A DNA stretch of 10,606 nucleotides from contig JBDRIL010000028.1 in the NCBI GenBank assembly GCA_043815885.1, positions 1-10,606 on the forward strand. Reading direction: 5' to 3'. Position numbers and translations under genes: made by a program. The DNA comes from an archaeon. Its GTDB lineage: Archaea; Iainarchaeota; Iainarchaeia; Iainarchaeales; 1-14-0-10-31-34. How positions within the stretch are numbered: position 1 is the first letter of the stretch; each line of letters opens with the position of its first letter. Below the pieces are notes generated by a model. That model saw only the letters and a program-made list of their open reading frames with translations. It was not told where the DNA came from and did no database searches. Below are positions 7,932 to 10,511 of the stretch, piece by piece.

Positions 7932-8309
7932 TCAGGCTACAATCATTTTTTTTAGGTCTACTTTTCTGACACCTATTTCGAGGGTTCCGGAAGCCTTTCC
8001 TTTTATTAGTTGGCCTCCTTGTGGAGTGAAGCCTGTCTTGGTTATGGAGACCCTTATAAGGGTAGTGAAGTTTCCTGCATTGGATTTCTGTATCTTGCCG
8101 CTTATGGCATTAACCTGGAATTCTTCTTTGGCACTCATTTTTTCAATGCTTCCTCTTGGGCCATTTGAAACCAGTTCAAATTCCTTTATTTTGCCGCAAG
8201 CGCTAACCAAAAAGCCATAACCAATATCCTGTTCTTTTGCAAGATTCTGCAGTCCTTCAATTATATCGGAACCATCCTTCAGCATTAAAGCAAACATGTT
8301 TTCGGTCAT
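7932..8309 (-). CDS. PPC / DUF296 domain protein, degenerate (no His ligands)
   Basis: FALMLKDGSDIIEGLQNLA...GFLVSACGKI...VNAISGKI...GGQL...TLEIGV follows the DUF296 pattern. AGGAGG SD before ATG 8309 makes this the likely start rather than 8345. Confidence 0.8.
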   Translation of the reverse strand: MTENMFALMLKDGSDIIEGLQNLAKEQDIGYGFLVSACGKIKEFELVSNGPRGSIEKMSAKEEFQVNAISGKIQKSNAGNFTTLIRVSITKTGFTPQGGQLIKGKASGTLEIGVRKVDLKKMIVA

Positions 8310-8321
8310 AAAAACCTCCTT

Positions 8322-8354
8322 AAAAAAAATTATTGGGGGCATCAAAAAGCCCCC
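8322..8354 (-). terminator. Terminator/attenuator-like hairpin between the short ORF and the DUF296 gene
   Basis: Minus strand GGGGGC-TTTTTGAT-GCCCCC followed by AATAATTTTTTTT. Confidence 0.55.
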
Positions 8355-8378: not shown

Positions 8379-8429
8379 TTATTCCATTTCTTCGGTTTCT
8401 TTCTTTTTCTTGGTCTTTCTTTTTGCCAT
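8379..8429 (-). CDS. Putative 16-aa basic/acidic small peptide MAKRKTKKKKETEEME
   Basis: Manual translation: ATG at 8429, TAA at 8381-8379. Strong SD GGGGAGGA 7 nt upstream. Too short for the ORF track. Confidence 0.55.
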   Translation of the reverse strand: MAKRKTKKKKETEEME

Positions 8430-8542: not shown

Positions 8543-8550
8543 TATTTAAA
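8543..8550 (-). promoter_or_regulatory. TATA box (TTTAAATA) for the leader/peptide/DUF296 transcript
   Basis: Consensus archaeal TATA on the minus strand, predicting a transcription start near 8519-8523. Confidence 0.55.
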
Positions 8551-8559
8551 TATATCTAA

Positions 8560-8649
8560 TATCAAAAGACATTAATTATGAAAATTTTTTAATGTCTTTT
8601 GATAGCTATCAAAGGACAAATTTTGTTTCTATATTTTTGTCCTTTGATA
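8560..8649. repeat. Two adjacent perfect inverted repeats made of four copies of TATCAAARGACA
   Basis: TATCAAAAGACATTAA 8560-8575 and TTAATGTCTTTTGATA 8589-8604 (16 bp arms). TATCAAAGGACAAA 8607-8620 and TTTGTCCTTTGATA 8636-8649 (14 bp arms). Confidence 0.92.
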
Positions 8650-8698
8650 TAAAGCAAAAAAACAAGAAATAAAAAGATAATCCCGCTTATTTGTGTGC

Positions 8699-9061
8699 AT
8701 GTTTGTAAGGGATTTAAAGGAGTGTAAGGAATTCAGGAGTGGGGATAATGCTGCTTTTAGGGAGTTATTTAATCCATTAAAGGATGAATTAAAGTTAAAT
8801 TACAGTCTGGGGAGAGCAGTAGTAAAGCCTGAGAGAAGCACGAAAAAGCATAAATTGAAGTCAAGTGAAGTGTATTTTATTCTGAAGGGAAAGGGAGTAA
8901 TGTTTATTGATGGGGAAGAGAGAAAAGTGAGGGAAGGGGAAGCGATTTATATTCCTCCTGAATCAATTCAGAGAATAAAGAATAATGGAAGTACAGATTT
9001 AGTTTTTTTGTGCATTGTAGAGCCTGCATGGAAGAAAGAGGATGAGGAAGTAGTTGAATGA
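8699..9061 (+). CDS. Cupin domain protein (Cupin_2-like)
   Basis: HKLKSSEVYFILKGKG and GEAIYIPPESIQRIKNNG match cupin motifs 1 and 2; LVFLCIVEPAW tail. ATG 8699 preferred over GTG 8693. Confidence 0.88.
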   Translation: MFVRDLKECKEFRSGDNAAFRELFNPLKDELKLNYSLGRAVVKPERSTKKHKLKSSEVYFILKGKGVMFIDGEERKVREGEAIYIPPESIQRIKNNGSTDLVFLCIVEPAWKKEDEEVVE

Positions 9062-10052: not shown

Positions 10053-10511
10053 ATGTTTGGATTGGGTAAAGGAAAAATTGAGATCATTCTGGAAAAATAC
10101 AACTTCAGGCCAGGGGAAACCATTAAAGGAAAGCTATCACTGACTTTAAAGAAACCAATAAAGGCAAGGCAGTTGAGAGTGGAATTCGTTGGATTAAAGA
10201 CTTCAACGAGTACTGGGTTTGGAGTAGTGCAAAGAAACAGAAAAGGAAGCAGCCAGGATTACGTTCATAAATTTGAAATGCCATTGGATGGAGAAAAGGA
10301 ATACAGTGGAGGGGAATACAGTTTTGAGATAGCCATTCCTGCAGACATCCTGCAGAGAGGGACTGGCCCGGGAGGAGGAATAGGAAAAACCCTTCAGGCA
10401 GCACAATTCCTTTCAGGAACACTGACAAGAATATCCTGGTATGTTCAAGCAGCCTTAGATATAGAAAAAGGAATGGATGTAACTAAAAAGGTCCAGGTAA
10501 ACCTTGCATAA
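10053..10511 (+). CDS. Arrestin N-domain / Spo0M-like beta-sandwich protein
   Basis: IEIILEKYNFRPGETIKGKLSL...IKARQLRVEFVG, YSFEIAIP and ISWYVQAALDI...D motifs match the arrestin_N/Spo0M strand pattern. Confidence 0.72.
   Translation: MFGLGKGKIEIILEKYNFRPGETIKGKLSLTLKKPIKARQLRVEFVGLKTSTSTGFGVVQRNRKGSSQDYVHKFEMPLDGEKEYSGGEYSFEIAIPADILQRGTGPGGGIGKTLQAAQFLSGTLTRISWYVQAALDIEKGMDVTKKVQVNLA

Follow-up and report, generated by a model that had tools for sequence, protein, structure and literature searches.

REP sequences consist of palindromic units that alternate in orientation, are assembled into mosaics, lie outside genes and are able to form hairpins; to our knowledge, target duplications are not expected for the REPs and REPINs that are moved by Y1 enzymes. 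Several of the Correia, RUP and ERIC elements and of the archaeal MITEs make TA duplications, and TnpB (IS1341-like) elements make no target duplication. A hix site is composed of two inverted 12-bp half-sites, the TATC ends of which lie outward around a 2-bp core, and for short inverted repeats in general, inversion by template switching or recombination is an established process. The PIF/Harbinger-IS5 superfamily is described as being typified by 3-bp TWA or TNA duplications (PMC4482050). Archaeal MITEs of Sulfolobus, Halobacterium and Haloquadratum are listed in a review (PMC10969869), and MITEs in other DPANN genomes are mentioned in a survey in whose main text the strings 'Iainarchae' and 'Diapherotrites' do not occur (PMC11602168).

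The DNA analysed here, referred to as the window, is a stretch of 10,606 nucleotides that constitutes contig C28 of a 1.16-Mb archaeal assembly (62 contigs, 36.8% G+C, 91.7% complete). The array at positions 8560-8649 of this window is very probably one copy of a non-coding MITE of approximately 90 bases, the boxes of which would be transposase binding sites and the insertion of which would proceed through a 3-bp staggered cut, as in IS5/PIF-Harbinger-like elements. The element is present in multiple copies that are dispersed, sharply bordered and flanked by TNA, and it is missing from an orthologous site and patchily distributed across the order.

Four boxes of the form TATCAAARGACA are arranged in the array in the order > < > <, with starts spaced 33, 14 and 31 bp. 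Box 1 (8560-8571, plus strand) and box 4 (8638-8649, minus strand) are the outer boxes, and box 2 (8593-8604, minus strand) and box 3 (8607-8618, plus strand) are the inner ones. Together they make two perfect hairpins and a central quasi-palindrome; the alternating boxes, the two inverted repeats and the central palindrome described in the original prediction are thus all present in the sequence. The A-type hairpin unit (8560-8604, plus strand) has 16-nt arms at 8560-8575 and 8589-8604 that are 100% complementary, with 13 nt between them (loop 8576-8588). The G-type hairpin unit (8607-8649, plus strand) has arms at 8607-8620 and 8636-8649, for which the fold prediction gives 14 base pairs and a 15-nt loop (8621-8635). 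The two units meet at 8605-8606 in a dinucleotide that reads GC in 44 of the 51 two-unit copies found in this and other genomes, and the palindrome centred on this junction (13+13 nt) is 92% complementary. The two outer boxes are inverted copies of each other that differ at one position, and they are the terminal inverted repeats. A TAA at 8557-8559, which had been missed earlier, recurs identically at 8650-8652, and the element contains no ORF.

The box is enriched both locally and genome-wide. With at most one mismatch, it matches four times in the window against 0.25 expected, and none of 200 shuffled sequences reached four; the whole-genome scan that had been suggested as a check gave 115 matches at the same threshold, as compared with 38 for the reversed-pattern control. 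When 8557-8652 is folded as single-stranded DNA, two hairpins are predicted at -23.9 kcal/mol (z = -9.05), a value equalled by none of 200 shuffles.

The array lies between divergent genes, as had been noted: a PCC/DUF296 domain protein gene on the minus strand (7932-8345; Pfam PF03479, E = 1.2e-10) and a cupin gene on the plus strand (8693-9061; Pfam PF07883, E = 1.3e-12), both of which are outside the element. The cupin gene probably starts at the ATG at 8699, 46 nt past the right duplication; its homologues in six relatives begin with ATG followed by TTT or ATT. An AT-rich stretch does exist where a TATA box had been proposed (approximately 8543-8556), but it belongs to the flank only and is unrelated to the flanks of the other aligned copies. 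The copy in the window would be a passenger whose target was a TAA some 140 bp upstream of the cupin start, with AT-rich DNA left in between. On the other side of the array, a tiny lysine- and glutamate-rich ORF of 16 codons is located behind a GGAGG on the minus strand (8379-8429); the 35-nt stretch at 8395-8429, which this ORF overlaps, recurs with five differences in the contigs of three public runs, with a rise in summed depth. Elsewhere in the window, two proteins are unusual for an archaeon: a 376-aa protein (1033-2163) with two cysteine-rich modules that are pacifastin-like/VWC-like, and a 152-aa protein (10053-10511) with weak arrestin-N/C matches.

In this genome, the element occurs as 20 intact two-hairpin copies, two damaged copies and three single hairpins, the approximately 22 copies being spread over 17 contigs. 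The intact copies are 87-94 bp long (n=20) and share a mean identity of 91% (range 81-100%) when the loops are set to one orientation, and the window copy is unlike most of the others at 8584. When the copies are aligned with 120-bp flanks, similarity starts and stops abruptly at TATC...GATA, and every aligned copy begins with the A-type unit and ends with the G-type unit. One damaged copy (C50:21876) is decayed, and the other (C56:2479) carries another small repeat in its first loop. The latter insertion (C56:2503-2567) belongs to another repeat family scattered through the genome, 62-65 bp in length and with T-runs after its two short hairpins, which has 33 local matches and is also exemplified by C20:256-335 and C50:7167-7229.

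The public groundwater data agree with this picture. In the contigs of one such run, the summed depth rises from approximately 5.6 to 239-266 over 8558-8651 and contigs break at the borders, in line with a multi-copy repeat. The contigs of other copies part from the locus at 8556/8559 on the left and at 8650/8652 on the right. A joint in run X2 that seemed to go back 90 positions proved to be a further copy in reverse orientation, with a flank that matches the copy at C11:10061. No element-free allele of the window copy was found in the contigs of four public groundwater runs. The copy number also speaks against the suggestion of a replication or partition element, since approximately 22 copies in a genome rule out a unique origin. 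The cumulative GC skew of the 10-kb window, too short a stretch to decide on an origin, does not turn at 8.6 kb, and the local skew tracks gene strand.

The dispersal of the element bears equally on the lead option of the original prediction, according to which the boxes are tandem operators for a dimeric regulator, or sites of another host DNA-binding protein, and control the PCC/DUF296 and cupin genes on either side. An array of four inverted 12-bp sites that are well spaced and lie between divergent genes would suit such a function, and among the 25 copies, 10 do lie between divergent genes; however, 12 lie between tandem and 3 between convergent genes, next to unrelated genes, according to a crude ORF call (at least 90 aa) that small ORFs escape. 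No copy is inside an ORF of at least 90 aa (0/25). The same 90-bp unit is found approximately 22 times in the genome with target-site duplications, so it is not specific to this locus, and the duplications show it to be inserted DNA. Moreover, the cupin homologues in seven of the eight same-family genomes have different neighbours, which precluded an empty-site comparison at the window locus, and none of the six upstream regions examined in these relatives carries the element. We thus consider the operator reading very improbable. There is no indication of a regulator, an origin or an invertible switch that would serve the DUF296 and cupin genes, which removes a false lead.

The preferred reading of the array as a transposable element draws its main evidence from the flanking duplications. 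A 3-bp direct duplication of TNA, mostly TAA or TTA, flanks 18 of the 20 intact copies in this genome; the duplicated triplet is TAA or TTA in all of these but one, which has TCA (TGA when read from the other strand), and in the two remaining intact copies, two of the three bases agree. Of 53 non-redundant two-unit copies from other genomes and metagenomes, 42 have a perfect duplication (TTA 19, TAA 19, TGA 2 and TCA 2). The chance that 3-mers located 90 bp apart match in this genome is 0.03, rising to 0.32 when the two are TNA triplets, and even under the stricter TNA null the duplication gives P ~1e-7 in this genome and ~2e-12 elsewhere. With the copies read A-type unit first, both TAA and TTA are seen, which indicates a genuine duplication of the middle base and not a fixed end sequence.

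The duplications also define the mobile unit. In five copies that are split by an insertion between the units, the duplication is kept at the outer ends, and a separate duplication was seen for 0 of 27 single units outside this genome and for 1 of 3 here (C45:10188). The retention of the outer duplication by the split copies, together with its lack in the single units of other genomes, identifies the hairpin pair as the mobile unit, and the single hairpin was rejected in this role. The element is built of an A-type and a G-type hairpin, both palindromic, with GC between them; the outer boxes are its terminal inverted repeats, and the inner boxes, being inverted copies of the outer ones, give each end a pair of inverted sites. 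A transposase provided in trans would bind the boxes and insert the two-unit element at TNA, mostly TAA or TTA, with a 3-bp staggered cut; this insertion chemistry would be that of DDE transposases of the IS5/PIF-Harbinger kind. At four copies that directly adjoin an ORF end, with a distance of 0 (C10:27860, C11:16844, C32:13348 and C50:19148), the duplicated TAA or TTA appears to be the stop codon of the gene, which the duplication seems to have preserved.

One insertion site could be compared with its counterparts in eight same-family relatives. The copy at C50:15650-15739 occupies the 3' end of a small ORF that immediately precedes the gene for ribosomal protein S3Ae, and the order of upstream gene, small ORF and S3Ae gene is kept in all eight relatives, none of which has the element there. 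In the relatives, the small ORF has 35-41 aa, or 25 aa in one, and in seven of eight only 0-19 nt separate its end from the S3Ae ATG, whereas in this genome it extends into the element for 13 codons and stops 72 nt short of the S3Ae ATG. Removal of 90 bp and one TAA, performed by eye, yields a relative-like ORF of 34 aa that ends 12 nt before the ATG. The small ORF itself (C50:15554-15691; L136:1291-1428), one of those that the ORF call of at least 90 aa does not capture, is kept in all nine family genomes, and its last codons have been replaced here by 13 from the element.

The duplicated bases further distinguish the element from REP/BIME-like repeats, in which alternating palindromic units would be spread by a single-copy host enzyme, a RAYT-like Y1 enzyme or an analogue, and not by an insertion sequence. 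Such an origin would agree with palindromic units that lie outside annotated genes and combine as modules, with A plus G as the rule and, in some genomes, with other hairpin types joined to A or G units; it would also agree with the persistence of the boxes over eight families and with the result that a cognate insertion sequence was not found in any carrier examined. However, the variable middle base of the target is duplicated here, unlike the expectation for REPs and REPINs moved by Y1 enzymes, and the Y1 transposase domain (PF01797) has no match in this most copy-rich of the genomes. Additionally, no gene was seen to be flanked by units in the manner of a RAYT: the 3.3-kb interval between two copies on C50 holds housekeeping genes. 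We regard this explanation as improbable.

One instance of modular combination deserves description in its own right. In another genome, a third hairpin type, with ends of the form TAGCAGRCC..., is found exactly at the GC junction of G- and A-type units (L044:3048-3094 and L149, the latter corresponding to G119:C26:19130-19340). With its apparent TA duplication, it looks like a nested insertion of a mini-element.

The sequence variation among copies provides insight into how the units are maintained. The co-variation of the A and G variants within each pair, claimed earlier from this one array, is borne out by all 122 hairpin units, in which the same base occupies both arms (122/122): box position 8 is A/A in 65 units and G/G in 57, and one unit of each type makes one element. 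This co-variation is therefore that of two old unit types that always occur together, not ongoing compensation. At the other positions, 8 changes in both arms and 32 in one arm were counted across the 122 units, and one carrier genome has a variant A-type unit with G at position 5 of both arms in two complete units. The columns of the G-type boxes have an entropy of at most 0.61 bit, although these boxes lie outside the search pattern; the A-type boxes beyond this genome were required exactly by that pattern, and their invariance there is no evidence of constraint. The loops vary between genomes, with 42 and 41 distinct sequences among 51 two-unit copies.

Each loop is found in both orientations, as exact reverse complements, and the four combinations of loop orientation occur 11, 3, 3 and 3 times in the 20 copies. 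Two copies on C50 share both a rare base and an isomer, from which it follows that the isomer is heritable through copying. We infer that the isomers arose by inversion between the perfect arms, via template switching or recombination; a hairpin step in transposition might possibly lie behind them instead. Under the transposition model, the arms would stay alike while the loops flip, either because templated correction and inversion act at the perfect repeats or because a hairpin is needed for transposition.

The same variation weighs on whether the double hairpin was selected as RNA, in small structured RNA genes or transcript-end hairpins. The strength of the predicted fold and the eight symmetric arm changes across 122 units are what would be anticipated for such RNAs. 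However, the non-Watson-Crick arm pairs (G.T 11 times on one strand and 8 times on the other, plus 4 other mismatches) show no strand bias, which speaks against selection at the RNA level; the loops invert freely, and either orientation relative to the adjacent genes is seen among the copies. Furthermore, no Rfam match comes near its gathering score, the best over the array being snoF1_F2 at 18.3 bits as compared with a required 60. An RNA function is, in our judgment, the least credible of the explanations and scarcely to be expected.

To determine the distribution of the element, its junction pattern was searched across the order with up to two mismatches, a search in which the reversed-pattern control gave 0 matches everywhere. 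The element was present in 23 of 196 genomes of the order, representing 13 of 73 genera and eight families (its own and seven others), and was found in none of the eight other genomes of its own family (0/8). The present genome has the most copies, the next richest having approximately 8-9. The exact A-hairpin pattern gave 41 loci in species-representative genomes, of which 40 are in 14 archaeal assemblies that carry the titles Candidatus Iainarchaeum, Diapherotrites or archaeon; the one match in a Cytophagales bacterium was discarded as an unrelated palindrome with a GC loop. The same exact pattern gave 44 metagenome loci, and virus contigs had 0 matches for either hairpin pattern. The titles and the distribution of the carrier assemblies thus place the host in the Iainarchaeum/Diapherotrites group of the DPANN archaea.

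A search for the partner transposase gave negative results in the material covered. In this genome (91.7% complete, 62 contigs), PF01609, PF13359, PF13586, PF13358, PF00665, PF01797 and PF00239 have no match. A transposase gene bounded by boxes was found neither in this genome nor, with exact boxes, in two other carriers, in all three of which the boxes belong to hairpin units or are lone matches; nor was one found in 84 loci with 3-kb flanks, which come from incomplete assemblies of a kind that often loses insertion sequences. Several candidates were set aside. The PF01609 elements in the carrier genomes G041 and G042 and the PF13358 element in G041 have ends unrelated to the boxes, and boxes are lacking from an 80-aa PF01609 relic in G033 that is adjacent to ribosomal genes. 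A gene that recurs next to the element at three loci of one record is, judged by its SGGKDS motif alone, a PP-loop ATPase, and the box pairs 1.9 kb apart at L133 and L135 enclose no transposase. The two TnpB (IS1341-like) copies of this genome likewise have unrelated ends. These TnpB-only elements, at C11:11239-12556 and C38:17321-18638, are 90% identical over 1319 bp and encode a 420-aa ORF with a Cas12f1-like TNB domain.

We also considered a four-box, twin-palindrome family that has no insertion-sequence parent, has long been kept in eight families of the Iainarchaeales and is moved by a host-resident or unrecognised transposase acting on hairpin or cruciform ends with a DDE-like 3-bp staggered cut. 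We think this unlikely. If it were true, the system would parallel, in archaea and with a different chemistry, the REPIN-RAYT partnership, and the joint arm changes and the four loop isomers would be footprints of a hairpin-dependent mechanism. The MITE interpretation, which we favour, adds a well-defined family to the DPANN archaea, in which mobile DNA is little described, and the family can be used to mark recent mobile-DNA activity where genomes are approximately 1 Mb in size. Two details are noteworthy: its ends are full palindromes, which yields four putative binding sites, and no partner enzyme was detected in any carrier examined.

Searches of the literature on MITEs or transposases of DPANN archaea and Diapherotrites, and full-text searches for the box strings, found no description of this family; the array is apparently a copy of an undescribed MITE family. 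The likeness to hix and gix sites that had been pointed out consists in the string TATCAAAA, which the box has in common with the hix half-site quoted at the time. The geometry is different, as the TATC ends here face the central GC or stand 21 nt apart; the genome has no resolvase domain (PF00239, 0 matches), and the 13-15-nt loops are far too short to be invertible segments. Of the readings offered earlier, only that of a recombination site stands, and only broadly, in that the boxes most likely serve a transposable element as its ends and inner binding sites; it does not hold in the sense of a hix-type site. The REP/BIME repeats and the REPINs associated with RAYT share with the element the alternating palindromic units, the mosaic assembly, the position outside genes and the capacity to form hairpins, but the element described here has a target duplication and is AT-rich, and its genome has no Y1 domain. 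The Correia, RUP and ERIC elements and the archaeal MITEs, as presented in the review, resemble the element in size, in their many intergenic copies, in folding back on themselves and in their reliance on a transposase in trans (PMC10969869); they differ from the present element in its TNA duplication, its four boxes and its having no known partner here. The Tourist-like MITEs of the PIF/Harbinger-IS5 (PHIS) group are likewise short, non-coding elements with terminal inverted repeats, AT-rich targets and a 3-bp TWA or TNA duplication (PMC4482050). An IS5- or Harbinger-type transposase was not found in this genome, and the likeness rests on these general features, not on end sequences. In contrast to the Tourist-like elements, the present element has a complete palindrome at each end where a simple repeat would be usual, and its host is a DPANN archaeon.
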